Positions 14,401 to 64,000 of a stretch of 64,000 nt of DNA are shown here, one piece after another. Every line of letters begins with the position of its first letter. Position 1 is the stretch's first letter. The translations under genes were made by a program, and so were the position numbers. This stretch comes from a virus, in IMG/VR virus record IMGVR_UViG_3300022752_000020, positions 95,921 through 159,920 of that record. One strand, given 5' to 3'. Below the pieces are notes generated by a model. It did not search any database. It was not told the DNA's origin and saw nothing but the letters and a program-made list of their open reading frames with translations.

Positions 14401-14881
14401 AATTAAGGCAATGAGTGATGAAATTATATATCATCCTATTAGATATAAAATATTGTTTGGAGCAAAGGCTATATCAAATCTAAGAGCCAGTTTTAAATTA
14501 GTCAAAAACCAAGAACAAATTATCAGTGACAATGATCTTAAATCTAGGGTATTAAACAGCATAAATGAATTTTTTAGTTTAGAGAATTGGGATTTTGGTG
14601 ATAGTTTCTATTTCAGTGAATTAGTTGCTTATATAATGAATAGAACAGCACCTTTTTTGGTAAACATTGTAATTGTACCAAGACAAGAGAATTTAACTTT
14701 TGGTAGTTTGTTTGAAATTAAAGCTGAAAATGATCAAATTTTCATAAGTGGTGCTACCAGTGAGGATTTAGAGATAATAGATAGTATTACAACAAGTAGC
14801 CTTAATGCCACAGGGCTTATCAGTACTAATAATACTGTATTAAGTCAGCAATTTATTGAAAGCAGAGTGAGAGATAATTAA
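11432..14881 (+). CDS. Baseplate wedge protein (gp6-like)
   Basis: DF..LR..M..YL...DFNDY, ENFLELAERRESILRLA..L.Y, FSDGVFG, QNRMITAEDY. Confidence 0.85.
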   Translation: MSSTDRQNRLLVAEDWKRIYQSFKNADFTSYDFENLRRVMINYLRENYPEDFNDYIESSEYLALIDMIAFLGQSFAFRVDLNARENFLELAERRESILRLARTLSYNAKRNKPATGLLKWESISTTEDVIDSNGRNISNQEIAWNDPSNANWLDQFIRIINAALPMTAQFGSPDSSEKIFNIPTEQYRLQTVGTSVPVYAFTKAVDGRNMNFELVSTVIKDNNIEEEPPLAGRRLSFIYRDDGKGAASNSNGFFLLFKQGGLNTGTFTLSEPTTNEIVDIDATNINDSDVWLYKLNANGSESEYWDKVTNFEANNIIYNSVKKNIKNIYNIITRTNDRISLVFSDGVFGNLPLGTFRIYYRTSNGVSYTINPKDMRSVSVDVSYLSNTGQLEVLSIAMSLQTSVSNSSPSESDDEIKAKAPATYYTQNRMITAEDYNISPLSVDQDVLKIKAVNRSSSGISRYFDLIDPTGKYSSTDLFSDDGIIYREEYEDSFRFTYKNRVDIQAVIINQVLPYLSKISIRNYYYQKFGRIVLDLSAESRIIWQQNTEGTNYSTGKFKNNDQVILGYNSNNTFKSLESGALLKFVAPDNYAFLRSENNRLVNSNLPNTTKYIWAKLVTITNDGLVESLDDGSGPITLNEKIPNNAIITEIIPKWTITLDDVTVTLMNDLIFNNRDFGLRYDLDTKTWQLIFDTNLNLVDPFNIGRTGDISNQKLDSSWLLSFTTDTEKYTVLSRNLSYIFESDKKIRFYYDKTNKVFDTKTNKIIKDKISILNINTIPDSPYTPLNYSIDWEIINEFIGNDGYIDTKKIEITFKDSNDDGVVDDPDIFNLVVSPSTTDLYKFVVLKKYETSTGQIDYAWIENIGSDGNILIHIANTFTNIPSNYFIDKKYVYVYDTDTLFQYDMLLNKFVVSLDYKVYQGRKGLKFHYIHSADYEARIDPGYSNFMDLYVLTKQYDISFRQWLLGSIDQEPMPPSTDQLAITLGSKLEQIKAMSDEIIYHPIRYKILFGAKAISNLRASFKLVKNQEQIISDNDLKSRVLNSINEFFSLENWDFGDSFYFSELVAYIMNRTAPFLVNIVIVPRQENLTFGSLFEIKAENDQIFISGATSEDLEIIDSITTSSLNATGLISTNNTVLSQQFIESRVRDN

Positions 14882-20800: not shown

Positions 20801-23800
20801 GTGATATTGTAAAATATAAAGAATTTTTTTATACTGCCACTCAACGAATAGATGGTACAGATGAATTTAATCCTAGTGTTTGGCAAAGACTAAGTCAAAC
20901 ACCTACTAGTAAACTATTACCTAATTGGGATTATAAATCTTTACAATTTTTAGATTTTTATGACCTAGACAGTGATAACTTTGATAGCAATCAACAGGCC
21001 ATAGCTCAACATCTTATTGGTTATCAAAAACGTCAATACTTAAACAATATCATTAAAAATGATGTAAGTGAATTTAAATTCTATCAAGGAATGATAACCG
21101 AAAAAGGCACTTTAAATTCACTTAACAAGCTATTTGATGTATTAGGACCAGATAATAAAGAAAGTTTAGAATTTTTAGAAGAATGGGCTGTACGTGTAGG
21201 TACTTATGGAGCAACTAATACATTTGATGAGATAGAGTTTGTATTAGATGAAATTAAGTGGAAAACCGAACCTCAAGCTTTCGAATTAGTTAATGAAATT
21301 GATCCAACTAAAAAAGATTATGTAATTAGACAAACTGAAAATGACTTATATCTTAAGCCTCTCAATTACTCTAATAATATTTGGCCAATTGCAACTGATT
21401 ATACAAAATTTCTAAAAACTCCTGGATTTAGTAAAGTAGAATTTGCAAAACTTATATTAGATGATTTGACAGATATCATAACACTTCAAGATACAGAATC
21501 AATAGATATAAATGTAGGCGAATACGCTTGGTGTGGTTTTCAAACAAAAATTAATCAATTTGGCGATGATTGGAATATATTTAGATATAACAAACTAGAT
21601 GTAACAGTGTCTAATGTTACAGTAAGCACTACTAATTTAATTATTACATTTAATGTTTGGCCTAACTTTGTTATTGGAGATGTGGTTAGATTTGTCAGTA
21701 ATTATGAAAAATTTAATAAATTTTATAGAATTAATAATATAAATCAAAGTTCTAAAACTATCACAGTGATAAAGGACAAAGATTTTCAAATTAATGAATT
21801 ACAAAATAACACAGTTCAAACTTATGCATTTAATAATCAAAGATATAACGATATTGATCAGGTAACTATTCCTAAATATGTTAATACAGACACTAATTTA
21901 TGGCCTTATGGTGAATTATTATGGTTTACAGATAACGGTAAAAATAGTATTTGGAAAAATACTAATGTATATAAACAAGAAGTTATAACAAATTTCAGTA
22001 ATTTTGATAATCAAGAATTTGGTTATACTGTAGCAGTAAATGAAGATTCTACAGTACTAGCAGTGATGTCAAGAACAGATGAAGTATGGCGTAGTAGTTG
22101 GCAATCTGGAACAACATATCAAAAGAATAACCTAGTATATAGAGATAATAAGTTTTGGCAATGTATTTCTGCTACAAGCACTCGGGCCATATTTAATCCC
22201 AATAAATATATTACAAATGTAGAAATAATTGAATCAACTCCTGGACAAAAAATATTTACATGTGATAGTGTAGAATATTTACAAGTAGGATCCTTAGTAG
22301 AAATAGTTGGTGTATTTGTAGGCTCTGCTCAAATTATAGATCATGTTGATGGCAAAACTTATAAAGTTAGACAAATAATTAACAATGCTAACCAAAATGA
22401 TTTTATTTTAGAAAATTTAGATGGCAGTAATTTAACATTGGCAGTTGGTGTAGCTAGTAGTGTAAGCTTTTTATTAAAAGGTGATTGGACTGAAACTAAT
22501 CAATCTACTAGACAAGTATTAATATATGTTAAGCCTTATCTGAGTACACAATGGGCCAAAAAACAAGTTATCTATGCTGAATCAAATGTATTCAATTTTG
22601 GTTCGAGTATCAATATAGATAAAAATGGAAGATTTATTTCAATAACTGGTATACGAAAAAAAGTTAGTAATAATCAATTAGAATCTGCTGTATATCTTTA
22701 TAGTATACCTCAAAAAATAGTTACCTTTAGTAGTAACTTTAGACTGACCACTGGGAATAGATTAGATTATGTGAATAATAAAATCGTTATACCAGGTCAT
22801 CTACTATCAGAAGGGACATTAGTAAAGTATTCAACATCTGATACGCCATTAAAGGGCTTAGAAAATAATCAGGAGTATTATGTAGAAACTCTTGATAGTG
22901 AAAGTTTTAGACTTACTCGAGATGTAGATTTAATTGATTTAATTATATTACAAAAAAGTGTATCTGGAACTCACTATATTACTAATTTAAATATAGCTCA
23001 GAATTACAGTTTAACTACAATAATATCAAATACTGAAACTACTGATATCAACTTTGGAAGTAAAGTAAAATTTGCATTGGTTCCTAATGCTAATCCTAAT
23101 TTAAGTTATTATAAAATTTACATTAGTAGCTATGAAAAGGGAGTGTTTGTTTATGAATATACTAGTTCAATAGGACCAGGACTTAACATAGATAATAATA
23201 ATCTTACGGGCTTTGCCTATGATTTTGATGTCAATAGCGACGGAACAAGAATTGTTGTTAGTGCTCCTACTCAAGGAAAAATATTCTTTTATAATAATTC
23301 ATATATACCAACAAGTATAATAAGAACAACTAGCGAAGGTTTTGGACAAAGTTTGAGTTTAAATAATGATGGTTCTTATTTGGCTGCTAGTAGTCCATTA
23401 GAGGACGGTGTAAAAACTGATCAGGGTAAGGTTAGAATATATAAACTTACTGGTAGCACTTATATTTTAGATCAAACCATAGAAGATCGTAATCCAGAGA
23501 CTAATGAGGAATTTGGTTATTATATTAAGTTTATTAACAATCAAGATAATATAGCAAAAACACTTGTAATTTACAGTAGGAAAGCTGATAGTTTTACATT
23601 AGATACTTACGATGATGTTACATATCCTCAAATAGGTGAATCTAATACTGTGGTAGATGTAGGTAGAATAGACATATATGATAGATATTTGACCAAATAT
23701 ATCTATTCTGAATCACTGCCTGCAAGTAATATACCTTTAACTACGCCATATAGTTTGGCTATAGGTGAAAATACTGTAATTTTAGGCAATCCAAACGTGC

Positions 23801-26800
23801 TTAAGGATAACAAACGAGATGGTAAATTGTATCTCTACACTAAAAAAGCAAACACTTATAGTTGGCAAAAGTATATTCAACAACAACCCAATATTAAACT
23901 AGATTGGTTTAAAAAGATATTTGTTTATAATAAAAAGAATAACAGTTTTATAAGTTATCTTGATATAATTGATCCTGTACAGGGTAAGATAGCAGGGGTA
24001 GCAGAACAGGAATTAAAGTTTAAAACTTACTACGATCCTGCTACATATTCCTTCAAAAATAGTACATTTAGTAAAACAGTAGCAGTAGATAGAGGTATAG
24101 CTTGGACAGATAAACATGTTGGAATGTTATGGTGGGATCTACGACGTGCTAAATTTTTAGATGCAGGATTAGGTGATGTTGTTTATAATAACAGTGTATG
24201 GAATACGTTATTCCCAACAGCCAGTATTGACATCTATGAATGGGTGGAAAGCAAATTATTACCCAGTAAATGGGATACATTAGCTGACACTGTTGAAGGA
24301 TTTGCTGATGGCATTAGTGGAACTAGTTTATATGGTGATAATGTATACAGTACCAAAACTAGTTATGATACTTTAGGTAAAAAAAATATAACAACTTACT
24401 ATTTTTGGGTAAAAAATAAACGCATAACACCCAATATAAAGGATAGAAAATATAGTGCTTCGGATGTAGTCAGTTTAATTGAAAATCCTAAAAATTACAA
24501 TATAAAATATATTCAATTTACATCAAGAAATAGTTGGGGATTAGTCAATGTTAAAAATGTTTTAGATAAAAAGGATGTAGCCTTAAGTGTGCAATATTGG
24601 AATTATGAACCAGATGATCTTAAGATACACAGTGAATTTAAAATATTGAGTAATAATGAAAAAACTGTAATACCAGCTAGTATTGAGGAAAAATGGTTTG
24701 ATAGTCTAGTAGGGTTTGATAAAAAAGGACGTATGTTACCAAATTTAAAATTAAGTCCTAAACTTAGATATGGGATAGAAAATAAACCAAACCAAACTAT
24801 GTTTGTTAATAGATTGGAAGCATTAAAGATTTTTATAGAAAATTTAAATTACGAATTAAAAGATATTCAAATAGACAATGTTGATCTACAAGATTTATAT
24901 CTAAAAGATAATATTCCTGAATTTAAATTTGGATATTATGATTATGTTAAAGATTTTTATGAAGAATTAGTTTATATTGTTGTTCAAACCTTTCAACCTG
25001 GATCATTATTACCTATTATATCAAACGGTAGACTTAGCAGTGTAAAAATATTAAGTCCAGGATCAGGTTATAAATCTGCACCAATAGTTAAAATAAAAGG
25101 TAAAGGATATGATGCAGAAGTTAAAACTCAAATAAACTCATCGGGTTCAATTACAAATGTTAAAATAGTATCAAGTGGTTACGGATACTTAGATGATACA
25201 GAACTTGAAATCAGGCCATTAAGTGTGCTAATTCGTAGTGACAAGTATACTTTGAATGATTGGGCCATATATCATTATATTAACGGAAATTGGATCAAAG
25301 CGAAAACTAAACAATATGATGTCACAGATTACTGGTATTTTATAGATTGGTATGCAAAAGGGTATAATCAATATACTAAAATTGATTATATAGTTAAAGG
25401 ATTCAATGAATTATTAAGCCTAAAAGCTAATATTGGAGATATTGTTCAAATTGAAAATACGCAGGGTACCACAAATTGGACACTGGCGGAAAAAATATCA
25501 AATGATTTAGCTATTGATTATACTAAAATTTATAAAGTTGTTGGAAAGAAAAACGGTGCTATTCAAATAAGCAATAATTTTTATAATTTTAAGTTAAACG
25601 AACAGGGTTATGATGGTTTATTATATGATAGTGATTTATATGATCGAGTTGGAACTATTGAGTTAAAAACTATATTAGATGCCTTAAAAAATAAAATTTT
25701 AATAGACAATCGTAGAAGCATTTATATGAACCTATTTTTCAGTAGTCTGAAGTATATTCTAAAAGAACAACCTTTTGTAGATTGGTTCTTTAAAACTAGC
25801 TTTGTTAAAGTGCTTCACAATGTAGGTGGACTAAAACAAAAAGTTACCTTTAATAACGATAATTTAAGTGATTACGAAAATTACATAAGAGAAGTAAAGC
25901 CATTTAGAACAAAAATAAGAGAATTTGTAAGCATATATGATAATACTGAAAATTCTAATAGTCTAATAACAGACTTTGATGTACCATCTTATGTGAGCCC
26001 AGCAAATGTTATAAGAAATTTATATACTGAATATCAAAATAGTAGTGTATATGTAAATGACAATGTATTGATCAATCAATATCCATATAAGTCATGGATT
26101 GATAATGTTGGATTTGGTATAAAAGAAGTTGTAATTGTTGATTCAGGTCAAGGATATATTGACTATCCTAATATCAAAATAACAGGTGCTTGTAAGAGAC
26201 CTGCTAAGATTAAAATTTATATAAGTAGAGCCAAAATTAGTAAAATTGATATTTTAGATGCAGGTGAAGGATATTTTACTCCACCTACAATTAAATTAGA
26301 AGGTCAATTTACTCAAGATGGATACGAAGCTAAAGTAATAGCAATATTAGGAAATAACCCAATTAGATCTAATCATATTGCAATGAAATTTGATAGATAT
26401 GCTAAGGAAACTATTGCAAACGTACAAGATATTAATGTTATAGAGAATTTTATAGGTGATTCAAGTACAACAAGTTTTATATTAAAATATAGTCCAGAAA
26501 TAATTAGAAACAAAATTAATGTTTATGTTAATAATGTCCAATTATTCAATAATCAATTTTCTATTACTAAAACAAGTAATAATGACAAAAAATATAAAGT
26601 TTATTTAGGAAATTTAATATTAACGAAAGCCCCAGTTGATAACGCCGCAATTAGAATAGAATATGTAAAAGATTTTAATAACCTTAATGCACTAGAAAGA
26701 ATCAAGCATTACTATACACCAACAGCAGGAATGCTGGGATTAGAATTTGATCAACTTATGACAGGTATAGATTATGCTGGAGTTAGTATTACAGGTATAG

Positions 26801-29628
26801 GATTTGATAAAGTTAATACTTGGGATGGAGAATATACTTGGAGCAGTAAAGGATGGGACGCAGGTGATCCTACAGATGACGAGCGATATGATATAATAAT
26901 TGACGGTGGTAATTTACCTAAATTAAATGCTGCCTACAGAACAGCTAATGGTATACGTGCAGAAGATATTATCATTGATGGGGATAGTTTTATTACTCCA
27001 ATGACTAGTCCAGCTCCAGAAGAAATGGTACCAGGACACACAGCAGATACATTGGCTATCAAAGTTTTTGAGCGTAATATCAGTGTAACTAGTGAAATAA
27101 ACTGTGTAAGATACATTACAGATGGTATATCTAATGAATTTAAACTGGACGTTTATCCTAATAATGAACAAGCTATTATAGTAAAACTAGATGATAATGT
27201 ACTAGATTCTAATCAATATGTATTTGATTATAACACATTAACACTAACTTTAATACAGACACCACCAATTAATAAAGATCTTAGCATAATTTGTTTTGGA
27301 TTTAATGGAAATAATTTGCTGGCCATAGATAAAGTAGTTGTTACTGAACGTAGCGATACTGTAATTTTAAATACAGATTGGCAGGATAATATCAGTGTAT
27401 ATACTGTTGTTGCTGGTGATCCGACTGATTGCATACCATTTCAAACATTTGGTGCCTATCAGTCTAATATACCCTACAAATTAAATGATAAAGTTGTCTA
27501 TCAAAATCAATTATTCCAATCTAACATTAATAATAATTTTAATAATGTTCCATTAATTTATAGTGAAAATGATAGAGCATTTATTGTAAACAATACTTTT
27601 TGGACTAAAATAAAAGATGGTGTAACTGCTTATGCAAATATAAACAAAATAGCAGTATTACTTCCAATTACAGTGGATGTAGGAGATGTAATTGTTTATA
27701 GTGTTTTCATTGGAGATACTAAAGATCAAAGTGTACTAACTAAAGAAATTGTAGTTTCTAATGGCACTAGTACTCAATATACCCTAAGTAATTTTGTTGG
27801 TTATAGTTTTCCCTTAGCCAGTAACACTCTAGTAAGAATTAATAATACTGTTCTTAACAGTATAGATCAATTTAAATTTACTCTAAAAAATAGAGTAACA
27901 AAATACATTATACCCCTTAATAAAGGTGATATAGATGTTTACTCTAGTAATGATTATGAAGTTTATATTAATTCTATTAAAGTACCTGATGCTATTGCAT
28001 ACACTTTGAACTTATTAGATAATACTATTACAATTAAACCTAATTATTATAGAGAAAATGCTGAAGTATTAGTTGCCATAACAAAATTTAGTGATTATAC
28101 TATAAGTAACGCCACAGGTAAATCTGTTTTAACACTAAGACAAACATATCCCGCAGGTACAAGAATTGAAGTTATAGCTATGACTAATCACGATATTTTA
28201 AAAATCAATCGTAATTATTTGACTATAGAAAAAAATGTTAATGCCCTAACAGATAATATCTATAAAGCTGTTTTAATGGAAGCCAGCGGAGGTATATTAT
28301 ACTTAGGACAAGAAATAGTTAATAGTAATTATGTTTGGGTAACCAAGAATAAACAACTATTAGTTCCTTTATTAGATTATCAACTTAGAGAAGATAAGAG
28401 TAGCATAAAATTATCTAAAACACCAAGCGAAAATGATGTTTTTGGTTTAATAACATTTACCAGTAATATAGTTCGTAATCCAGTTAGTTTTATGCAGTTT
28501 AAAGATATGTTAAATGACTTTAGTTATAAACGTCTTAACAAATATAGAACTACTAGATTAAAAAATAATCTTAATCAAAATGATAAAGAAATTATAATAG
28601 AAGATAGTGATCATATCGCAGACGGATTAAGAGACAGCAATACTTCTGGTGTAATATATGTTAATGGAGAAAGAATTGAATACTTTGTAAGAACTGGTAA
28701 TAAATTAAGTGAAATACGCAGAGGAACTAGAGGAACTGGAGTCCCCCAGATTCATAAAGCTGGTGTAGAAGTTTATGATATTGGTATAGCAGAAACTATA
28801 CCATATAGAGATACTACATCAATTTATAAAATTTTGGGAACATGGATACCTAGTTATAGATATCTAATAAACGATATTGTTACCTATAATAATGAAAACT
28901 GGATATCAATAACTGGAATTAATTATGACTTATGGACTGCTACTAAAACTTATAAGCTCAATCAACAAATAATCTTTAATCATAACTTATACATAGCTAT
29001 TAAAGACATAGATGGAACAGTAACCAATACTAATAAATCTCCAAACACTGAAAATACTTGGTGGCAATTAGAAAAAACAGGAGTAACACAATATCCTAGT
29101 TTGACTAATACAAATTGGGAAAAAACTAAAATAGCATATTTTGATGATTTTAGCTCTGTTAATGACCCATATGGGAAAATTGTATTACCTTGGATGCCTA
29201 TAGTACAAACTGATATAAACAATTCTAGCATAAAAACTGTATTAGATACTGAAATTTTTATTGGAACAGAAAGACTTAAAAAGGTACCGTATACAATACA
29301 TGATAGAAATATCAATCCACATAGTCCAGAAGGTGATGTAAACTACCCAAGAGATTTTGTAACTGATGCAACAAATCACAGCACAGTTAATGGCGAAGTT
29401 GTAGTATACATTAAATTAGAAAATGATGTAGCAGTAAATAGTAGAATAACTATAGTAAGAAAACAAGGCAGAGTTTGGAGCGATTTAGGATTTAGTTTGT
29501 CAGAATCAGCTAATAAAGTAGCTGAATTTTTGAAAGTAGATGTGGCTAAATTTCCAGGGACTAACCCAACTTTTGACAGTAGAGGTTATACTATAGACTC
29601 TGGAAATATTAGAACGGATGAGGAATAA
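14881..29628 (+). CDS. Giant baseplate/tail structural protein (4915 aa, gp7 position)
   Basis: Uninterrupted ORF coupled to gp6; N-terminal FLPQFY..D...KFL; GSGY repeats, FG-GAP-like repeats and W..Y..GD.V.Y repeats. Confidence 0.75.
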   Translation: MSDENTLGIPLDKNEKRKSERFLPQFYRTDSNKKFLSATVDPLIQRGTAKKLSGFIGRKNSKASKANDIFINEVNDERNNYQLEPCLTNEDILGNTTFFKDYIDYINTIDVFGGVTNNHQRLNVQEFYSWNPHICWDKFVNYLQYYWLPYGPETVRVNGTKTLDIVSTFKVEIVDEGDNFAYLMTPDALTRNPALRLYRGETYKFEINAEAHPLSIRTARVSSTSPEFRGSVSFNYNQHGSNNFVVDILTDFDVVHLEKQQKFVSSSTGLMRANVKAQDGTVRIINSSQTDHLTNVVSITPTAQNLLKIDDEVIFDSNISGSTGVLGSLEPNQTYYIKSFVYDNPPPPPEGIAPTPRKIIGFTLNYVPAVNLFAEVYVNGNKLKQSEFNFYTNDKRKRVLNIQSNIGQDDIVILDFFKLKENDQFRYFDGIKTFEYLNDKLVETKNFSVSKGILEFTVSADAPDVLYYVSNIDPNTSGLIKIFDITENTSIDVDAEIVGKINYTSRGIDLSNGMKIKFGGLVYPESYRDRDFFVEGVGEGIKLIDVKTLEVVTDIAYNVDVNFDTSGYDELAFNNINYAALDKDYIVINRSSRDRNPWTRYNRWFHKDVIEKTAKILGKVAVFDQSQRAIRPIIEFNPNLRLHNFGNTSKKNIDLVDNFTKDAFSTIEGSLGYIVDGIELFNGHRIIFTADSDIRVKNKIYKVEFINVFNEDTGITKRLIHLAEESDAIPHELETVLVLAGKEYGSNMVWFDGSNWLKGQAKTSLNQAPLFALFDKEGRALNDSNKYDGSTFIGTKLFSYRIGNGSIDKELGFSLTYKNINNIGDIVFDFNLSVDTFKYKQENKVVEESISNKFLQYYTASNELSLVNGWTRNNIENVQPIIRIFKQEYIEKNGLKQIQINNFPLDVFEDSIDLEDLRIKVYVNNKKLSETEYELYQGIDIKYIRLENDIENDDIVTLKIYTKKPKSTSKGYYEFPINFQNNPLNEDVTTFTLGEVIDHVDSIVDNVDSFYGIYPGPSNLRDIGYLSSKGTKFVQHSGSINLSLYHLANTDANIVRALEKSMFDYNNFKKSFMYNTEYLEEGLSDKDAVDKLLQSINQNKTMNMAYYFSDMLAYLGEKNTQFKIKEFVQTKFPLTENFTLTTMTPKAVYIYVNKQQLIYEKDYNFTGDGFVEIFIELKEDDIVDMYEYASTDGCFIPPTPTSLGLYPKYEPKIYLDTTLITPQYVIQGHDGSIILAFNDFRDNLILELEKRIFNNIKINYDPKILDIYDYIQGPNRPTSYSKDEFNQVLAPNFFKWTTYVDKDYTKSQLYIQSNPFTYNYSEIQSFDFTPLPGYWRGIYKWYFDTDRIHLCPWESLGFSIEPKWWQAVYGPAPYTSDNLILWNDLKEGLVREPNKPIRVINKFIKPVLENIPTNSNGALVNPIQANLATGLFNARTEKNYVFGDISPVENAWRRSSYYPFAMLKTMILLTPNRVFSVYFDRSRILRDQTGQLVYEPTGKRIKLKDILITNTINEQERVQTSGLVNYIVDYLITRKPQALENYKFDLKNLSNKIGHRLSGFSSEEKFNLILDSRNINSTTSVFVPKENYKIFLNTGSPTKKLFYSGVIITKLLTRYGLGYEIKGYSQNQPFFYYFPWSKSGYNINIGGISESYINYESNQTYVIGNIVKVLDNYYRVKISHNSGPNVDYTLLEKLPSLPIVGGVDAEFRSEFSSIPQVLNYGTILYSVQDVVDFILGYGEYLKSKGFIFDSYIAELKDVGRWELSSKEFMFWITQNWGTGKDYYDEWKPQTNYRSGDLIINNNLFYSVRQDHTTTEIFDVRNYIPVENIDSSGASAISLSPAALGISLGLQYNVVDNIISPLDYEIFKSDGSKYEPNDLNYYRDGNKFTIKPKNEEQGIYGVGFHLVQKEHVLVIDNVTQFNDIIYNTSTGYRQERLKIYGYKTIDWNGSFDSPGFVYDSAYLNEWSTWTDYNVGDIVKYKEFFYTATQRIDGTDEFNPSVWQRLSQTPTSKLLPNWDYKSLQFLDFYDLDSDNFDSNQQAIAQHLIGYQKRQYLNNIIKNDVSEFKFYQGMITEKGTLNSLNKLFDVLGPDNKESLEFLEEWAVRVGTYGATNTFDEIEFVLDEIKWKTEPQAFELVNEIDPTKKDYVIRQTENDLYLKPLNYSNNIWPIATDYTKFLKTPGFSKVEFAKLILDDLTDIITLQDTESIDINVGEYAWCGFQTKINQFGDDWNIFRYNKLDVTVSNVTVSTTNLIITFNVWPNFVIGDVVRFVSNYEKFNKFYRINNINQSSKTITVIKDKDFQINELQNNTVQTYAFNNQRYNDIDQVTIPKYVNTDTNLWPYGELLWFTDNGKNSIWKNTNVYKQEVITNFSNFDNQEFGYTVAVNEDSTVLAVMSRTDEVWRSSWQSGTTYQKNNLVYRDNKFWQCISATSTRAIFNPNKYITNVEIIESTPGQKIFTCDSVEYLQVGSLVEIVGVFVGSAQIIDHVDGKTYKVRQIINNANQNDFILENLDGSNLTLAVGVASSVSFLLKGDWTETNQSTRQVLIYVKPYLSTQWAKKQVIYAESNVFNFGSSINIDKNGRFISITGIRKKVSNNQLESAVYLYSIPQKIVTFSSNFRLTTGNRLDYVNNKIVIPGHLLSEGTLVKYSTSDTPLKGLENNQEYYVETLDSESFRLTRDVDLIDLIILQKSVSGTHYITNLNIAQNYSLTTIISNTETTDINFGSKVKFALVPNANPNLSYYKIYISSYEKGVFVYEYTSSIGPGLNIDNNNLTGFAYDFDVNSDGTRIVVSAPTQGKIFFYNNSYIPTSIIRTTSEGFGQSLSLNNDGSYLAASSPLEDGVKTDQGKVRIYKLTGSTYILDQTIEDRNPETNEEFGYYIKFINNQDNIAKTLVIYSRKADSFTLDTYDDVTYPQIGESNTVVDVGRIDIYDRYLTKYIYSESLPASNIPLTTPYSLAIGENTVILGNPNVLKDNKRDGKLYLYTKKANTYSWQKYIQQQPNIKLDWFKKIFVYNKKNNSFISYLDIIDPVQGKIAGVAEQELKFKTYYDPATYSFKNSTFSKTVAVDRGIAWTDKHVGMLWWDLRRAKFLDAGLGDVVYNNSVWNTLFPTASIDIYEWVESKLLPSKWDTLADTVEGFADGISGTSLYGDNVYSTKTSYDTLGKKNITTYYFWVKNKRITPNIKDRKYSASDVVSLIENPKNYNIKYIQFTSRNSWGLVNVKNVLDKKDVALSVQYWNYEPDDLKIHSEFKILSNNEKTVIPASIEEKWFDSLVGFDKKGRMLPNLKLSPKLRYGIENKPNQTMFVNRLEALKIFIENLNYELKDIQIDNVDLQDLYLKDNIPEFKFGYYDYVKDFYEELVYIVVQTFQPGSLLPIISNGRLSSVKILSPGSGYKSAPIVKIKGKGYDAEVKTQINSSGSITNVKIVSSGYGYLDDTELEIRPLSVLIRSDKYTLNDWAIYHYINGNWIKAKTKQYDVTDYWYFIDWYAKGYNQYTKIDYIVKGFNELLSLKANIGDIVQIENTQGTTNWTLAEKISNDLAIDYTKIYKVVGKKNGAIQISNNFYNFKLNEQGYDGLLYDSDLYDRVGTIELKTILDALKNKILIDNRRSIYMNLFFSSLKYILKEQPFVDWFFKTSFVKVLHNVGGLKQKVTFNNDNLSDYENYIREVKPFRTKIREFVSIYDNTENSNSLITDFDVPSYVSPANVIRNLYTEYQNSSVYVNDNVLINQYPYKSWIDNVGFGIKEVVIVDSGQGYIDYPNIKITGACKRPAKIKIYISRAKISKIDILDAGEGYFTPPTIKLEGQFTQDGYEAKVIAILGNNPIRSNHIAMKFDRYAKETIANVQDINVIENFIGDSSTTSFILKYSPEIIRNKINVYVNNVQLFNNQFSITKTSNNDKKYKVYLGNLILTKAPVDNAAIRIEYVKDFNNLNALERIKHYYTPTAGMLGLEFDQLMTGIDYAGVSITGIGFDKVNTWDGEYTWSSKGWDAGDPTDDERYDIIIDGGNLPKLNAAYRTANGIRAEDIIIDGDSFITPMTSPAPEEMVPGHTADTLAIKVFERNISVTSEINCVRYITDGISNEFKLDVYPNNEQAIIVKLDDNVLDSNQYVFDYNTLTLTLIQTPPINKDLSIICFGFNGNNLLAIDKVVVTERSDTVILNTDWQDNISVYTVVAGDPTDCIPFQTFGAYQSNIPYKLNDKVVYQNQLFQSNINNNFNNVPLIYSENDRAFIVNNTFWTKIKDGVTAYANINKIAVLLPITVDVGDVIVYSVFIGDTKDQSVLTKEIVVSNGTSTQYTLSNFVGYSFPLASNTLVRINNTVLNSIDQFKFTLKNRVTKYIIPLNKGDIDVYSSNDYEVYINSIKVPDAIAYTLNLLDNTITIKPNYYRENAEVLVAITKFSDYTISNATGKSVLTLRQTYPAGTRIEVIAMTNHDILKINRNYLTIEKNVNALTDNIYKAVLMEASGGILYLGQEIVNSNYVWVTKNKQLLVPLLDYQLREDKSSIKLSKTPSENDVFGLITFTSNIVRNPVSFMQFKDMLNDFSYKRLNKYRTTRLKNNLNQNDKEIIIEDSDHIADGLRDSNTSGVIYVNGERIEYFVRTGNKLSEIRRGTRGTGVPQIHKAGVEVYDIGIAETIPYRDTTSIYKILGTWIPSYRYLINDIVTYNNENWISITGINYDLWTATKTYKLNQQIIFNHNLYIAIKDIDGTVTNTNKSPNTENTWWQLEKTGVTQYPSLTNTNWEKTKIAYFDDFSSVNDPYGKIVLPWMPIVQTDINNSSIKTVLDTEIFIGTERLKKVPYTIHDRNINPHSPEGDVNYPRDFVTDATNHSTVNGEVVVYIKLENDVAVNSRITIVRKQGRVWSDLGFSLSESANKVAEFLKVDVAKFPGTNPTFDSRGYTIDSGNIRTDEE

Positions 29629-53374: not shown

Positions 53375-53475
53375 TATATTATGTCACTTATCCATATTAT
53401 TATCTAAAAGAAAAACAAAGAATAAAAAAGAGACTTGAGGAATTAAGAAAACAAGATCCGTTTATATACAAATGA
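53350..53475 (+). CDS. Small protein, 41 aa (not in the ORF track)
   Basis: MVKIFRILIYYVTYPYYYLKEKQRIKKRLEELRKQDPFIYK; ATGA-coupled to the carbamoyltransferase. Confidence 0.6.
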   Translation: MVKIFRILIYYVTYPYYYLKEKQRIKKRLEELRKQDPFIYK

Positions 53476-54932
53476 TTTATTGGGGTGTCAATGCTAATAA
53501 CCACGACAGTAGTCTGTCAATAGTATCTGATAATCAGATATTATTTGCTGCTCATAGTGAACGTTATAGTAAAATTAAGAACGATAGTGATATAGATTCT
53601 AATTTGATAAAAGCAGCATTAGAATATGGACCTCCCAATCTAATCATTCAACACGAAAATCCTTGGAATAAAAGTTTAAGACAATTTTTAGCTGGACAAG
53701 GTATCATTAATAATTCTTTAAAAAAATATTTTAAAGATCATACTAAATCAAAAATTATTAATGTTAATCATCACCTAAGCCATGCTGCTGCTGGATATTT
53801 TACTAGTGGGTTTGATCGAGCCTGTGTACTTGTAATAGATGCTATAGGTGAATTTGAAACTTTGAGTATTTGGCAGGCAGAAGGATCTAAACTAATTAAA
53901 AAATTTAGTTTAAAATATCCTAATAGTATAGGTCTTTGGTACAGTGCTATGACAGATCGTATTGGTCTTAAACCTAACGAAGAAGAATATATATTAATGG
54001 GTATGGCTGCTTTTGGTGACCCTAATAGATTTTATTTTGATATTTTTGATGATTTCTTTACTCATGCATCCTATTCAAATATAAAATTTAAAAAAAATCT
54101 ACATCGTGGCTGTAAAGATTGGAAGACTGATCTGAAATCAAAACAAGATTTATTTGATATTGCTGCCTCTACTCAATGTGTTTATGAAAAAGTATTTGAT
54201 TTTACATTGAATAAGGCTAGGTCTTTGGTACCTAGTAAAAATCTAGTATTAATGGGAGGTTGTGCTCTTAATTGTAGTGCTAACTCTATAGCATTTGAAT
54301 ATTTTAATGATATTTGGATTATGCCTAATCCTGGTGATGCAGGTAGTAGTTTGGGCGCAATTTTAGCACATACAAGAAAAAACATAGGATGGAAAGATGC
54401 ATTTCTAGGACATAATATAGAACCTACAACAGATGTTAATCAAATAGTCGATTATCTAATTGAACATAAAATATGTGGGGTAGCTCAAGGTAGAGAAGAA
54501 TTTGGTCCGAGAGCTTTCGGAAATCGTAGCTTACTTGCTGATCCAAGAGGTCCTGATATTAAGGACCGTGTTAATCAAATAAAACGTAGACAAGAATTTA
54601 GACCGTTCGCTCCTATGATACTTGAGGAATACGTTACAGAACATTTTGAAATATTGGGTTCCCCTCGACATCATAGATATATGCAATACACCAGTAGATG
54701 TAGACATCCAGAGCAATTTCCTGCTATAGTACACAAGGATGGAACAAGTCGTGTACAATCAGTACCTAAAGATGGTTCAAGAATTAGACAACTTTTAGAA
54801 TATTGGTTTTTAAAAACAGGATGCCCTATGTTGCTTAACACCAGCTTGAATATTAAAGGACAACCTCTAGTGCATGATATTAAAGATGCAGAATATTTTC
54901 AACAAACTCATAATATTAGAGTTTTTACATAA
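53472..54932 (+). CDS. O-carbamoyltransferase (NodU/CmcH family)
   Basis: HDSS, HHLSHA, DAIGE, GGCALNC, PGDAG, EFGPRAFGNRS, LLNTSLN. Confidence 0.92.
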   Translation: MIYWGVNANNHDSSLSIVSDNQILFAAHSERYSKIKNDSDIDSNLIKAALEYGPPNLIIQHENPWNKSLRQFLAGQGIINNSLKKYFKDHTKSKIINVNHHLSHAAAGYFTSGFDRACVLVIDAIGEFETLSIWQAEGSKLIKKFSLKYPNSIGLWYSAMTDRIGLKPNEEEYILMGMAAFGDPNRFYFDIFDDFFTHASYSNIKFKKNLHRGCKDWKTDLKSKQDLFDIAASTQCVYEKVFDFTLNKARSLVPSKNLVLMGGCALNCSANSIAFEYFNDIWIMPNPGDAGSSLGAILAHTRKNIGWKDAFLGHNIEPTTDVNQIVDYLIEHKICGVAQGREEFGPRAFGNRSLLADPRGPDIKDRVNQIKRRQEFRPFAPMILEEYVTEHFEILGSPRHHRYMQYTSRCRHPEQFPAIVHKDGTSRVQSVPKDGSRIRQLLEYWFLKTGCPMLLNTSLNIKGQPLVHDIKDAEYFQQTHNIRVFT

Positions 54933-57001: not shown

Positions 57002-57163
57002 TAGACCCACCATTCGTCTCTGAACCATTTCCGCCTCAAATAATTCAATCTCTTTAGGGTTTAAACTTTGTCTTACTTCCTTGCTTAATGTACTAGATCC
57101 TGTAACAAATAATATTGATCCGTAGAGTAAAAATACTGTATATAGGGCAGCTAACATCATCAT
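56948..57163 (-). CDS. Small two-TM membrane protein
   Basis: Two hydrophobic stretches; start overlaps the cyclase stop. Confidence 0.55.
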   Translation of the reverse strand: MMMLAALYTVFLLYGSILFVTGSSTLSKEVRQSLNPKEIELFEAEMVQRRMVGLLLLYVPVFSFIWWLIIN

Positions 57164-58395
57164 TATTTCATTCTGTTATCATCAATAAATTTAATTTCAT
57201 CCACTAGAGCATCCGCATCAGTTTTGAAATTATTAAAATCACTTCGAGTGATGGTCTTATTGAGCTCTTCTAATAATTTCTGTGCCTCAGCATTATGCTC
57301 AGCACGAGCAGCATATAACCAACGGAAGGCATTTTTCTTATCACCTATCTGTGTATAATATTTTCCAAGACTTAGCATAGCTGGTATCTTACGCTTCATT
57401 GCACCTTCCTTGAGATCACCTATTACACTTTCTATTTCATTATCACTGCTGTTAGGATCACTAAACACCATCATGGCTAATCTATAACTGGCCTGTTCAT
57501 TGACCTTGGCTGCTTGACGTAAAAACTGCATGGCCAAACTACGACTTTCACCTTCAACTAGGTCTACTATACGTAGGGCTAGATCGCTATTGATCTTTTG
57601 ACAAAACTCTCTGAATACAGCATGTACATAGGGTTTTAACTCTGTTGGCACTAGGTTTTTTTGTACCATATTGATTAATTCATCTAATGCTTGACTATCC
57701 TGCTTGCTCACACGCCACATCATGATACGTGTAGCTGGGCCATACTTGGCATCATGTTTCATTGATATAGCATCATTTAGTGTACGATTACGGGCTGCTT
57801 GATCATTGACCACAGCGGCTACTAGTTCACTATGGCTCTTAGAAATAGTTTGATTTTGAGTTTTTTTTACTGTTTTATTAAGATGTGGATTGGGCTCTGC
57901 ACCTTCAATATCCACACTCCATATTTCCATGGGCGCTACATTCTTAAACTCTTGTACTCCCCTACTGATAAATTTATGATTTTTTATCTTAGGAGCTACT
58001 AGACGATAGACAGCATCGGTCATGGTAACACCACCATGGTCGGCTAGACTTTCACAACGAGCAGCAAGATTCACAGCATCGCCCATGAGGTTAGTACCAT
58101 AGATCCATACTTCGCCCATGTGCATACCCACACGCCAACGCATGCCATTATTGAGACTGCGTATTAGTGCTTGCATTTCTATGCCAAAGCGTACAGCATC
58201 CACTACACTGGCGAACTCAATAAGTACACTGTCTCCTCCTGTGTTGAACAATCGACCCCTACTACGGTCGATTAAGGGATCAATAACAGCACGACAGGCA
58301 TCTAACTTGGCCAACGTCCCTGCTTCATCTTGCTGCATCAGTGTGCTATAGCCAATAACATCACTACAGATAATGGTGGCTAGTTTGGTTTCCAT
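57163..58395 (-). CDS. Class III nucleotidyl (adenylate/guanylate-type) cyclase with C-terminal Sel1/TPR-like helices
   Basis: SDVIGYS, GGDSVL, RVGMHMGEV, GDAVNLAARCE, FKNV; C-terminal AMLSLGKYY....DKKNAFRWLYAA. Confidence 0.88.
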   Translation of the reverse strand: METKLATIICSDVIGYSTLMQQDEAGTLAKLDACRAVIDPLIDRSRGRLFNTGGDSVLIEFASVVDAVRFGIEMQALIRSLNNGMRWRVGMHMGEVWIYGTNLMGDAVNLAARCESLADHGGVTMTDAVYRLVAPKIKNHKFISRGVQEFKNVAPMEIWSVDIEGAEPNPHLNKTVKKTQNQTISKSHSELVAAVVNDQAARNRTLNDAISMKHDAKYGPATRIMMWRVSKQDSQALDELINMVQKNLVPTELKPYVHAVFREFCQKINSDLALRIVDLVEGESRSLAMQFLRQAAKVNEQASYRLAMMVFSDPNSSDNEIESVIGDLKEGAMKRKIPAMLSLGKYYTQIGDKKNAFRWLYAARAEHNAEAQKLLEELNKTITRSDFNNFKTDADALVDEIKFIDDNRMK

Positions 58396-60141: not shown

Positions 60142-61023
60142 ATGTTAAAAGATCAAGCTCTAGAATTTTTTATTCAACTACAGACAGATATAATCTCTGA
60201 CTTAGAATCATTAGATGGAAAACAATTTATTACAGATACTTGGCACAGACCAGAAGGTGGAGGTGGTACTAGTAGACTGGTAGAAGATGGTAACATATTT
60301 GAACGTGGTGGCTGTAACTATAGCCATGTATTTGGAAAAAAATTACCACCTAGTGCCAGTGAACATAGACCAGAACTTGCTGGACAGAGTTGGGAGGCAG
60401 CAGGCGTTAGCCTAGTCATGCACCCAAAGAATCCCTACGTGCCCACAGCGCATCTTAACGTGCGTATGTTTATCACAGAGTCAGGACAGGGTTGGTTCGG
60501 CGGTGGTATGGATCTTACCCCATATTACTACTTTGAACAAGACGCTGTACACTGGCATGGTATTTGTAAACAAGCACTAGACCCCATTGACACAAACCTA
60601 TACCCCAAGTATAAACAATGGTGCGATAACTACTTTGATCTTAAACATAGAAACGAATCAAGAGGCATTGGCGGCATATTCTTCGACGATCTCTCCCGGC
60701 CTTCAATGGAACAGGCATTTGACATAGTTAAAGCTACTGGACGAGCTTTTATTAAAGGCTATGCTCCCATAGTAACACTGAGAAGGGATATGCCCTATAC
60801 ACAACGAGAACGTGATTGGCAACTACATCGTAGAGGTAGATACGTAGAGTTTAATCTAATCTACGACAGAGGTACACTGTTTGGCCTACAGAGCATGGGA
60901 CGTACTGAAAGTATATTGATGAGTATGCCTCCCTTGGCTAGTTGGCAGTATGACTATAAACCAGCATATGGAACTAGGGAAGATGACTTATTGAAGAACT
61001 TGGTGCCTAAACAGTACGTATAG
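60142..61023 (+). CDS. hemF: Oxygen-dependent coproporphyrinogen III oxidase
   Basis: [61 protein letters not shown]. Confidence 0.96.
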
Positions 61024-61925: not shown

Positions 61926-62122
61926 AATACAGATCCTTTCAAGAATTATTTAGCAGAATCCGAACCGGGTCTACACTAAAAAAAAGCTGTAAAAAAATTT
62001 TTTAATATGAAGTACTTAGAGTTTTCAGGGGGTTTTTCTGCCACCATGGGTTCTGTAGCAGCAGCGCTATAAAATATATAATTTATTTTTATAAGCCACC
62101 ACCCAAGACATCCTTCAGAGAT

Positions 62123-62156
62123 AAAAAAAGTCCTGACGGTGTACTCACATCAGGAC
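62123..62156 (-). terminator. Rho-independent terminator
   Basis: GTCCTGA/TCAGGAC stem followed by 7 U on the minus strand, just after the 62168 stop. Confidence 0.7.
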
Positions 62157-62167
62157 CTAAAGGGGGC

Positions 62168-62500
62168 CTAGTCTAGTCTACTGCCTGCGTATACACGCTC
62201 AAGTCCAAGTTGAGCCTTCAGGACCTGTGCAAAGGCTTCAGCGCCGTCCTCCAGTATGCCTACACTCTGTACGCCTAGTCTGCTGGGGTTCCAGTACTGT
62301 AGGCTACGCTCGTAGCCATTGCGAGTAAAGCCTGCTGCTAACAGTGCCCGACCCAGTTTACTGTTAGCCCTAACGCCGTAGACGTCTACCCAAGCAAAGC
62401 CACAAGCGTCCCTATCACCACGTAGTTCTAAGCTCTTACGTGCTTGGCTGTTAGCGGCTTGGAGTGCTTGTTCTACAGCCTGTTGTACCTGTTGTTCCAT
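62168..62500 (-). CDS. Hypothetical early protein
   Basis: CGFAWV motif; own sigma70 promoter and AAGGA RBS. Confidence 0.75.
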   Translation of the reverse strand: MEQQVQQAVEQALQAANSQARKSLELRGDRDACGFAWVDVYGVRANSKLGRALLAAGFTRNGYERSLQYWNPSRLGVQSVGILEDGAEAFAQVLKAQLGLERVYAGSRLD

Positions 62501-62535
62501 TTGCTAGTCCTTTGTGTTAATGTCTAAGTGTTCGT

Positions 62536-62578
62536 AGTATACGCAGGTTCTAAAAGCCTGTCAACCCGTGTGGGTATT
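62536..62578 (-). promoter_or_regulatory. Early sigma70 promoter with upstream box
   Basis: AATACCCACACGGG-TTGACA, 17 bp, TATACT. Confidence 0.8.
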
Positions 62579-62806
62579 GGCTAAGTTCACAGTGTGGATG
62601 GGCACTGAAAGAATATAGAAGTCAGTGAGATCTAGTGTGCCGTAGAGGCTGAGGTGTTGTTGTTCTGCGGCTCGTTGTGCCTCTAGTGCCTCATCCAGGG
62701 AAGTGTAGAAGCCTAAGGTGCCATCGTAGTCTGGGTCCAAGAGGCTGCTGGCCAGTGTGGGTTGGCCCAAGTTCTGTAGAATGTAGATCAGGATAGTGTC
62801 AAACAT
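62561..62806 (-). CDS. Hypothetical early protein
   Basis: 81 aa; AAGGA RBS and promoter upstream. Confidence 0.6.
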   Translation of the reverse strand: MFDTILIYILQNLGQPTLASSLLDPDYDGTLGFYTSLDEALEAQRAAEQQHLSLYGTLDLTDFYILSVPIHTVNLANTHTG

Positions 62807-62836
62807 CTGTGTTCCTTTCTGTGTCTGTATGTTCGT

Positions 62837-62879
62837 ATTGTACGTTCGTTCTAAAGACCTGTCAACCTGTGTGGGTATT
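62837..62879 (-). promoter_or_regulatory. Early sigma70 promoter with upstream box
   Basis: AATACCCACACAGG-TTGACA, 17 bp, TACAAT. Confidence 0.8.
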
Positions 62880-62880
62880 T

Positions 62881-62957
62881 TGGCCTGACTGGAGGGATTC
62901 GAACCCCCGACCGACGGATTAGAAATCCGTTGCTCTATCCTACTGAGCTACAGTCAG
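62881..62957 (-). tRNA. tRNA-Arg(UCU)
   Basis: Acceptor CTGACTG/CAGTCAG, anticodon arm ACGGA-TTTCTAA-TCCGT, GGTTCGAATCC, encoded CCA. Confidence 0.93.
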
Positions 62958-62958
62958 T

Positions 62959-62976
62959 TGGTGCCCGTAGCCGGAC
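62959..62976 (-). pseudogene. 3' remnant of a disrupted tRNA gene
   Basis: GT-CCGGC-TACGGGC-A-CCA = end of T-loop, T-stem, acceptor strand and CCA. Confidence 0.75.
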
Positions 62977-62980
62977 CTTT

Positions 62981-63065
62981 TGGTGCTCCGACCCGGACTC
63001 GAACCGGGACTCCCGAAAGAAGTGGATTTTAAGTCCACTGCGGCTACCTATTACGCCATCGGAGC
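62981..63065 (-). tRNA. tRNA-Leu(UAA)
   Basis: Acceptor GCTCCGA/TCGGAGC, anticodon arm GTGGA-CTTAAAA-TCCAC, long variable arm, GGTTCGAGTCC, ACCA. Confidence 0.92.
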
Positions 63066-63488
63066 ATGACTTCTATTATACTTACTCTTTATCGCTTCTG
63101 CAATCTTCCTTTTATGTTCTTCTGATTTAGGTTTACCTTTATTAGCCTTTCCTCCTGATGCCTTGTTGCCTCTTGAATTCCTACGACAAGCCTCTTCGTA
63201 ACCATACTTATCTACTGAGCGATCCCATGCACTTTTCCAAGTTCCATTAGCGATTTGATCATCTATATTCTCTTTGTAGGACCCCCAATAAAGGTGCTCG
63301 GGATTAGAACATTTTGCATTGTGACAAGCATGACATAGTACTATTTTCTTTTCTATAAAAATATCAGTGCCTAAAAAGTCTGCTAGCAATCCACGGAACA
63401 TTGTTGAGTATCCACCACGCTCTTTACAAGGAGTGTTTAATCTTAAATGTTGTTTTCTTTCTTCTTTTGGTTTATCTAAATAATTCAT
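63051..63488 (-). CDS. HNH-type homing endonuclease with NUMOD3-like DNA-binding tail
   Basis: CHACHNAKCSNPEHLYWGSYKENIDD; KGKPKSEEHKRKIAEA; TATAAATA at 63508-63515. Confidence 0.85.
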   Translation of the reverse strand: MNYLDKPKEERKQHLRLNTPCKERGGYSTMFRGLLADFLGTDIFIEKKIVLCHACHNAKCSNPEHLYWGSYKENIDDQIANGTWKSAWDRSVDKYGYEEACRRNSRGNKASGGKANKGKPKSEEHKRKIAEAIKSKYNRSHAPMA

Positions 63489-63540
63489 ATTGATCCCCTT
63501 CTACATTTATTTATAATAAACACGGAGAACCAACATGATT

Positions 63541-63567
63541 TGTGTCTACCTATTCCACCATACGGGC
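63541..63567 (-). pseudogene. 5' remnant of a disrupted tRNA (Leu-type) gene
   Basis: GCCCGTA-TG-GTGGAATAGGTAGACAC-A = acceptor strand and D-arm; pairs 7/7 with the remnant at 62963-62969. Confidence 0.75.
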
Positions 63568-63573
63568 CTGTGT

Positions 63574-63900
63574 CTATTTAGCGGGTTCCAGGCTGGCTAT
63601 GCCCAGTTCCTGCATGCCTTGTTCTGTGAACTTCACTGGGAAGCCTACGATCCTGCTGACATCTTGTTCAAAGCCCCTGTCAGTGTAGACTTCCCAGGGA
63701 CCATCGTGTGCCACTAGGACTTCTGTTACAATCCTGTCTGCTAGGGCAAGATGCCTGATCGTTATAGCATCTACATTGAACTTCATACCTTTACTGTTCA
63801 TCCACAGACTTGAGCCATCGCAAGTCGCAGAATCTATAACAGTGAAGCTGTGCTCTACACAGCCCTCTGCAAAGTGTGTCATAGTCATATTCTTTAGCAT
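63574..63900 (-). CDS. Hypothetical protein
   Basis: 108 aa; VYTDRGFE...FTEQGMQ; AAGGA RBS. Confidence 0.7.
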   Translation of the reverse strand: MLKNMTMTHFAEGCVEHSFTVIDSATCDGSSLWMNSKGMKFNVDAITIRHLALADRIVTEVLVAHDGPWEVYTDRGFEQDVSRIVGFPVKFTEQGMQELGIASLEPAK

Positions 63901-63910
63901 GTTATAATCC

Positions 63911-64000
63911 TTAGCCTAATAGTGCCTTTACTCGCACATACTCTCCACCGCCAACTCGCAATTGCACGTCGCAGTCACAAGAGGTACGTTTCACCTTGTT
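63911..64000 (-). CDS. Partial hypothetical protein (3' end)
   Basis: Open frame NKVKRTSCDCDVQLRVGGGEYVRVKALLG* entering from the window edge. Confidence 0.5.
   Translation of the reverse strand, partial: NKVKRTSCDCDVQLRVGGGEYVRVKALLG

Follow-up and report, generated by a model that had tools for sequence, protein, structure and literature searches.

A probable homing endonuclease cassette with a replacement tRNA-Leu, nested in the remnants of a phage tRNA-Leu gene

SegB of phages T4 and T6 is a free-standing GIY-YIG homing endonuclease that resides in a tRNA gene cluster (PMC2330249; PMC13096335). Its site lies in conserved tRNA gene sequence, a T-loop motif, it is preferentially inherited together with the neighbouring tRNA genes, and its homologues are widely linked to tRNA genes (PMC2330249; PMC13096335); it shows no isotype preference (PMC13096335). 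HNH endonucleases are also found within the tRNA clusters of T5-like and other lytic phages (PMC10194208), and in T4 the HNH endonuclease mobA and the 50-nucleotide (nt) bypassed insert of gene 60 make up one mobile cassette (bioRxiv 10.1101/2022.08.31.505936; PMC2988022). The usual view is that a homing endonuclease can invade a conserved gene without harm only by means of a self-splicing intron or intein, or else that it settles between genes. Here we analyse 64,000 nt of viral DNA, positions 95,921 to 159,920 of the IMG/VR virus record IMGVR_UViG_3300022752_000020 (in the following, the window), in which a gene for a predicted His-Me/HNH endonuclease and a complete tRNA-Leu gene stand between the two remnants of another tRNA-Leu gene. 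We consider it likely that this is a free-standing homing endonuclease cassette for phage tRNA-Leu genes, which destroys the gene it enters and supplies a replacement with a variant D-arm. Such a cassette would represent a third route into a conserved gene, in which the target RNA gene is wrecked and a working substitute is provided that differs where the enzyme presumably reads.

All features of the locus are read on the minus strand, and coordinates are those of the window; the feature positions given in a first-pass annotation of the sequence were correct to the base. The insert comprises 564 bp (62976–63539) and is located between nt 1–28 and nt 71–87 of a tRNA-Leu(UAA) gene. From left to right in the direction of reading, the locus consists of:

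63574..63900 (minus): upstream neighbour gene, 108 amino acids (aa), no Pfam family; an open reading frame (ORF) forming the conserved left flank
63540..63567 (minus): 5' remnant of the resident tRNA-Leu(UAA), nt 1–28, with the 5' strand of the acceptor stem and the whole D-arm; from alignment to the allele of relatives
63489..63539 (minus): leader of the cassette, 51 nt, with a GTGTTTA element, a TATAAATA box and a GGGGA ribosome binding site (RBS); from the sequence
63508-63515 (minus): T4-type late-promoter box TATAAATA; sequence match
63051..63488 (minus): gene for the free-standing putative His-Me/HNH endonuclease, 145 aa; ORF
62981..63065 (minus): cargo tRNA-Leu(UAA), complete, 85 nt; ARAGORN and Rfam
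62976..62980 (minus): spacer at the right junction, 5 nt, AAAG plus G (C in the intact allele); from the sequence
62959..62975 (minus): 3' remnant of the resident tRNA-Leu, nt 71–87, with the 3' strands of T-stem and acceptor stem and ACCA; from alignment
62881..62957 (minus): tRNA-Arg(UCU), conserved right neighbour; ARAGORN and Rfam (70.7 bits)

At 7 of 7 positions, GCCCGTA pairs with TACGGGC across the outer acceptor stem, and the pieces to which these halves belong match nt 1–28 and 71–87 of the intact tRNA-Leu of relatives, so that the outer pieces indeed belong to one acceptor stem, as the first-pass annotation had proposed. It had also noticed that the outer tRNA lacks its anticodon and variable arms: compared with the intact 87-nt allele, nt 29–70 are gone. 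The 5' piece, originally drawn from 63567 to 63541, is common to the intact allele through 63540. A single base separates the 3' remnant from tRNA-Arg(tct). The nuclease ORF lacks a stop codon of its own: it uses the TAA at nt 13–15 of the cargo tRNA, whose first 15 nt (63051–63065) double as the end of the reading frame. The GC content of the cassette is 36%, compared with 47–50% in the immediate flanks, a weak sign of foreign origin in a genome whose average is itself low.

The strongest evidence comes from the empty site. Searching with the two flanking proteins located three relatives, L011, L012 and L013, in which these proteins are 85–94% identical (aa) to those of the window. All three hold, between the homologue of the 108-aa gene and tRNA-Arg(tct), an intact 87-nt tRNA-Leu(taa), in L011 at 4334–4420, the very GCCCGTA...TACGGGC-ACCA allele which the first-pass annotation had suggested to look for. 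The 5' remnant is identical to this allele at 27 of 28 positions, the sole difference being G for A at nt 13, and the 3' remnant at 17 of 17; both stumps thus derive from a single tRNA-Leu gene and not from unrelated tRNAs, again as had been proposed. The flanks are 94–99% identical to L011 and L013 up to the stump edges (95% to both over the last 127 nt of the 108-aa gene), and the part from the 3' remnant through tRNA-Arg is 95–99% identical to the relatives. Since the flanks match up to these edges, the sole foreign DNA is the 564 bp standing in place of the relatives' 42 nt.

Both forms of the locus can be followed in natural populations. The public runs containing the stretch are freshwater and lake metagenomes, and contigs of four public runs were aligned to it. 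Contigs from three other lake runs (2011, 2018 and 2019; independent studies) cover the cassette without any difference, and one contig of 844 nt bridges both junctions. Empty-form contigs, in which 62975 is joined to 63540 with 42 letters between, came from two DNA runs and one RNA-library run; joints in the reads lie at 63540 on the left and at 62975/62976 on the right. Since the 42-nt joint occurs in the same lake runs, filled and empty forms co-occur in the same lakes. Thus, the locus is polymorphic for presence and absence among close relatives, as is typical of free-standing homing endonuclease genes. The exact 30-mer of the left junction had no match in metagenome contigs, and the exact right-junction pattern was found among viral contigs in one only, L218. 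Contigs of the RNA library (X12) cover the flanks and the intact allele, show low cover at 63024–63315 and none at 63330–63539, which says nothing on transcription of the nuclease; this library may also contain DNA.

L218 adds a decayed allele to the filled and empty ones. It is a contig of another phage with unrelated flanks, and 179 of 183 nt are identical to window positions 63141–62959. Common to both are the end of the nuclease gene (approximately its last 28 codons), the cargo tRNA and the same 3' stump, with the similarity stopping precisely at CCA. In place of the remainder of the nuclease gene there is a sigma-70-like promoter. From its sequence, L218 looks like the stage of degeneration expected of a homing element. 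Since the same 3' remnant is found here in other flanks, it may well move together with the cassette.

The combination of nuclease and tRNA-Leu is by no means restricted to this phage. An alignment-based scan of IMG/VR gave 169 relatives, of which the best 80 represent 69 distinct loci, and a metagenome scan added 54 further distinct ORFs, raising the number of distinct homologous nuclease ORFs to 123. On the same strand and directly 3' of the ORF, a tRNA-Leu is present in 60 of the 67 IMG/VR loci with room for it (35 taa, 23 tag, 1 caa, 1 aag) and in 40 of the 51 further metagenome loci with room, that is in 100 of 118 overall. In 43 loci the stop codon is inside the tRNA, most often at nt 13–15, and frame and overlap are conserved. 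In the nuclease tree the taa-linked and the tag-linked sequences form separate clades, requiring 2 changes compared with 13–21 in the ten label shuffles listed; because related sequences share labels, this is a structured association and not co-evolution as such.

The nesting recurs as well. Accepting any type of tRNA-Leu D-arm, we found a D-arm fragment outside any tRNA, 20–63 nt before the start codon, in 33 loci but in none of 204 control windows of related loci. In 9 of 29 non-redundant loci a downstream 7-mer is complementary to the upstream acceptor half, with at most one G-T pair allowed, and is followed by NCCA; permutation among loci yielded a mean of 0.17 matching halves and a maximum of 2 in 2000 trials. 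The metagenome set contributed six more nested cases, giving 15 other nested contigs. The first-pass annotation had expected such HNH and tRNA units within split tRNA remnants of other phages, and these 15 contigs with their different outer stems bear this out. Because the outer acceptor stems all differ, the nested loci represent separate invasions of different tRNA-Leu genes. According to pairwise alignment, by which the remnant positions were set, the left stump always ends at tRNA nt 25–28, whereas the start of the right stump is ragged (nt 40–77). The smallest part lost across the nested loci is the 5' strand of the anticodon stem together with the anticodon loop. With a permissive threshold, Rfam did not recognise partial tRNAs in the stumps.

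Among cultured phages and representative prokaryote genomes the family is rare. In the GenBank phage collection a DNA search matched only tRNAs, whereas a protein search gave three partial relatives of the nuclease, in Klebsiella, Citrobacter and Ralstonia phages; two of these, those of the Klebsiella and Citrobacter phages, were inspected and do not have the tRNA-Leu layout. A cultured example of the cassette was not found in this collection. Species-representative prokaryote genomes yielded 6 matches only, mostly on short contigs of metagenome-assembled genomes, from which we conclude that the nuclease lineage is essentially phage-borne.

Two of the related loci hold further elements. L325 has a GOLLD RNA (2725–3187; Rfam 194.7 bits) with a tRNA inside, approximately 0.7 kb downstream of its nuclease-tRNA-Leu cassette. 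In L274 (= L185), two successive short pieces at 2009–2075, each ending in CACCA, follow downstream of the cargo tRNA-Leu(tag); these could be 3' stumps that were stacked up as a single site was invaded repeatedly.

Several observations point to the D-arm as part of what the nuclease reads. GTG is present at nt 10–12 in 22 of the 27 distinct upstream stumps, compared with 17 of 72 intact tRNA-Leu genes in our library, and the D-arm of the victim type occurs in only two of the 39 cargo tRNAs which overlap the ORF. L244 and L261 form a reciprocal pair, since the cargo acceptor-stem type of each is the victim type in the other, and the changed D-stems are found in the cargo versions only. Furthermore, every nuclease clade goes with a single anticodon type. 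As a whole, these data suggest a recognition site that would span from the D-arm into the anticodon arm, with substitutions in the D-stem giving immunity.

The nuclease had been called an HNH-NUMOD3 protein. The HNH part of this assignment is supported: the 145-aa protein matches PHROG 6254, 'HNH endonuclease', at E 2.6e-10, and a family profile built from 24 homologues matches I-PpoI at E 1e-4. The NUMOD3 part is unconfirmed, as the protein has no match to PF07460 at E<=0.1; weak matches occur in 6 of the 24 relatives (best E 0.011). A GIY-YIG domain was matched neither in Pfam nor in PHROGs. Two Pfam nuclease families score below their curated cut-offs, zf-His_Me_endon (PF05551) with E 2e-5 and 25.2 bits (cut-off 27) and HNH_3 (PF13392) with 16 bits (cut-off 24.8); at E<=0.1 they are found in 23 and 20 of the 24 relatives, respectively. 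The protein contains the His-Me motif but stands outside the curated Pfam families. Its residues H53, C55, C60, H65 and N74 align with the catalytic and zinc residues H98, C100, C105, H110 and N119 of I-PpoI, and H53, C55, N57, C60, H65 and N74 are invariant in 24 homologues. Examined for a beta-beta-alpha-metal fold, the AF2 model (pLDDT 84.5) shows two strands followed by a helix at residues 49–80, and the top Foldseek matches are I-PpoI (probability 0.91) and I-HmuI (0.77), with weak E-values of ~0.1–0.25. The predicted active site is closest to a His-Me finger of the I-PpoI type, and with its catalytic motif intact the protein is a predicted nuclease of a homing endonuclease family. The ORF stands alone, outside of any intron or intein, with its own RBS and promoter-like box. 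A second copy of the nuclease was not found on the 159,920-bp record.

The cargo was described in the first-pass annotation as a complete but divergent tRNA-Leu(UAA), and so it is: ARAGORN calls an 85-nt Leu(taa), the Rfam tRNA score is 56.8 bits against a cut-off of 29, and 67 of 87 positions (77%) are identical to the resident allele. It is of class II, with a long variable arm, A73, an encoded CCA and the anticodon UAA, hence a bacterial-type class II tRNA-Leu. Four substitutions fall into the D-arm, the D-stem being GCG/CGC compared with GTG/CAC in the resident. The cargo is the only tRNA-Leu on the 159,920-bp record, and decoding of leucine would be kept by this imported tRNA with the same anticodon.

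The leader suggests how the cassette may be controlled. Both the TATAAATA late-promoter box (63515–63508) and the RBS before the ORF are present in the sequence as annotated. TATAAATA occurs 7 times in the 64 kb, compared with 19.5 expected from shuffles, a scarcity to be expected if a T4-like phage avoids a word that functions as its late promoter. In relatives the layout is conserved, a GTGTTTA element being followed by (T)ATAAATA and then by the RBS. In the predicted fold of the window leader, the 5' part pairs with RBS and AUG. Over 19 usable leaders the pairing probability of RBS and AUG is 0.65 for the full leader, 0.32 for transcripts beginning downstream of the box and 0.54 once the 5' part is shuffled; the fold of the whole leader RNA is not significant (z-score −0.72). 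GTGTTTA, which directly precedes the TATAAATA box (window region 63516–63550), nearly repeats the D-arm 3' strand of the stump in inverted orientation, and the base next to it and the base after the D-arm form Watson-Crick pairs in 27 of 45 cases (20 expected, P 0.012), a modest covariation. The element could be a hairpin, a terminator or, by analogy to I-TevI, an operator. We infer late expression with masking of the RBS. Such control resembles that by late promoter and hairpin in the T4 intron endonucleases (PMC2988022). At the other end of the gene, processing of the cargo tRNA by RNase P would remove the stop codon from the nuclease mRNA.

Taken together, a free-standing homing endonuclease cassette might work as follows. 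In a mixed infection, the nuclease would cut the cassette-free tRNA-Leu gene between D-arm and anticodon arm, and the break would be widened into a gap. This gap could be repaired from the cassette-bearing genome, for which the only homology needed would be the D-arm on the left and the T-arm and 3' end on the right. As an outcome, nt 1–28 and nt 71–87 would be left as dead flanks, the 42-nt centre would be exchanged for 564 bp, and the cassette would enjoy biased inheritance. The D-stem substitutions of the imported tRNA presumably make it a poor substrate. A selfish cassette replacing tRNA-Leu had been the proposal of the first-pass annotation, and it is supported by the intact gene in relatives and by the recurrent nested units. 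One may go a step further and regard remnants plus cassette as a portable homing site, with the stumps as the sole homology arms, and the whole as a natural, protein-guided cleave-and-rescue drive for an RNA gene which invades the tRNA-Leu genes of unrelated phages; this extension is a tentative one, and we would not yet favour it. Its built-in controls may travel with the portable site: a late promoter beside a D-arm-like element, acting as operator or as an RBS-masking hairpin, and a stop codon inside the tRNA.

Some points weigh against a homing cassette of this kind. At about half of the related loci there is no remnant. The uniform D-arm of the stumps could be a left homology arm travelling with the cassette instead of reflecting target specificity, and the T at nt 13 of many cargos also makes the TAA stop of the ORF. 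In its sequence variants the long-sided empty contig agrees with the L011-type relative and is, therefore, no isogenic counterpart of the window. Among the nucleases, the closest one (L311, 82% aa identity) is accompanied by a different tRNA-Leu, and L248 has a nearly identical cargo tRNA beside a nuclease only 58% identical; thus, nuclease and tRNA body are often recombined and do not form a rigid unit. Finally, the Pfam nuclease matches of the protein lie under the curated cut-offs, and the Foldseek E-values are weak, about 0.1.

Among the alternatives, the most probable one sees the main driver not in selfish homing but in a beneficial payload, the D-arm-variant tRNA-Leu, which would escape a host defence cleaving tRNAs, while the nuclease only promotes recombination or amplification of tRNAs, as for SegB. 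Indeed, SegB-dependent amplification of a phage tRNA defeats the tRNA-cleaving Septu defence (PMC13096335). The systematic D-arm difference between cargo tRNAs and victims would agree with a payload, as would the decayed L218, which keeps the tRNA and has lost the nuclease. However, we know of no defence directed against the tRNA-Leu D-arm, and a payload does not explain why the old gene was destroyed rather than supplemented, why the left junction is fixed and why nuclease clades are tied to one isoacceptor. We regard this explanation as rather unlikely; moreover, it is compatible with homing and no substitute for it.

Still less can be said for a passive scar of one illegitimate recombination, in which the nuclease would be inactive or serve another phage function and have no role in spread. 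Cleavage by the nuclease is indeed a prediction, HNH proteins have other roles in phages, and microhomology at the right junction amounts to only a few bases. Yet, at least 15 different outer tRNA-Leu genes show this architecture, with a left junction that always falls at the same position of the tRNA; throughout the family the catalytic residues do not vary, and 100 of 118 homologues abut a tRNA-Leu, all of which makes such a scar improbable.

As tRNA genes are classic integration sites and cyanobacterial tRNA-Leu(UAA) genes host group I introns, one may also think of an integrative element with attL and attR, of an intron or of a split tRNA. This is very improbable. The first-pass annotation had seen neither intron nor integrase, and rightly so: no Rfam intron family matches at E<=10 within 62000–64000, and no integrase or recombinase family is found among the neighbouring ORFs. 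Splicing could not restore the outer tRNA because anticodon arm, variable arm and half of the T-arm are missing, and the remnants, at 77% identity, do not duplicate the cargo. An assembly chimera, of which one might think for a metagenome-derived record with the locus 430 bp from the contig end, hardly needs to be considered, since independent assemblies from other studies and years (2011, 2018, 2019) reproduce cassette and both junctions without difference, excluding an artefact, and the right part of the cassette recurs in L218.

The phage is an uncultured one. The window represents the last 64 kb of a 159,920-bp record of T4-like make-up, with a gp5-type hub, a gp46-like ATPase and a UvsW-like helicase. 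A single ORF of 4,915 aa (14881–29628, plus strand) stands amid tail and baseplate-like genes, and genes of auxiliary type code for a carbamoyltransferase (53472–54932), a protein with an adenylate/guanylate cyclase domain (57163–58395) and an oxygen-dependent coproporphyrinogen III oxidase (60142–61023). For tRNA-Arg(tct) two alleles exist among the close relatives, differing by eye on both strands of the anticodon stem; the window (62881–62957) and L011 have one form, L012 (406–482) and L013 (4422–4498) the other. Downstream of the tRNAs, each small early ORF is preceded by a module of approximately 45 nt holding a near-consensus promoter, TTGACA-17-TACAAT/TATACT (window 62837–62865 and 62536–62564, minus strand; L011 4512–4545 and 4816–4850). 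The number of such promoter-gene modules differs among the window and its relatives, and in L012 three additional ORFs separate tRNA-Arg from the 110-aa gene. The repeated module looks like a promoter-repeat system by which early gene cassettes are shuffled.

Compared with known systems, the cassette shares with I-PpoI, I-TevI and the cyanobacterial tRNA-Leu(UAA) intron that a conserved gene is invaded without loss of function. However, intron endonucleases rely on splicing by a ribozyme for rescue, whereas here a replacement copy is provided and no ribozyme was found. Integrative elements likewise target tRNA genes, bring tRNA sequence and keep the function, but they do so with an integrase and a copy of the 3' end (attP/attB); the cassette has neither, and instead a complete divergent tRNA and two stumps that are not duplicates. 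The HNH endonucleases in tRNA clusters of T5-like and other lytic phages include F-TflI, F-TflII and F-TflIV; for such nucleases, to our knowledge, no fixed pairing with one isoacceptor, overlap of ORF and tRNA or nested remnants have been described. In the literature searched there was no account of a nuclease joined to a replacement tRNA between the remnants of the gene that it targets.

Synthetic Cleave-and-Rescue (ClvR) gene drives were reportedly introduced by Oberhofer, Ivy and Hay in 2019. Their logic, presumably that of the cassette as well, is to knock out the resident copy of a gene that is needed and to bring along a cleavage-resistant rescue. ClvR is engineered, based on Cas9, works in animals and does not home into its target, in contrast to a natural, protein-guided cassette inserted in its target. 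If the homing reading is true, it would be the natural counterpart of such engineered drives, would account for some of the turnover of phage tRNA-Leu genes and of the diversity of their alleles, and would provide a compact nuclease whose target, the D-arm/anticodon region of tRNA-Leu, is defined and highly conserved.

In mobA and gene 60, too, an HNH endonuclease is mobile together with an additional element by which the function of the invaded gene is preserved. Bonocora et al. are said to have found in 2011 that the gene 60 insert protects the invaded gene from the mobA enzyme. In that case a protein gene is kept by translational bypassing, whereas the cassette sacrifices an RNA gene and brings a complete spare one. 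Most similar is SegB, likewise a free-standing nuclease among phage tRNA genes which reads tRNA gene sequence, as the cassette would. The two differ in fold (GIY-YIG and His-Me, respectively) and in position, as SegB stands between intact tRNA genes; nested remnants, the end of the ORF within a tRNA and the exchange of the gene presumed to be cut are three features of the cassette that SegB lacks. The cassette would work like SegB without being a member of the SegB/GIY-YIG family. SegB is the nearest described system, and the cassette is probably a free-standing homing endonuclease of a phage tRNA region with a new layout.

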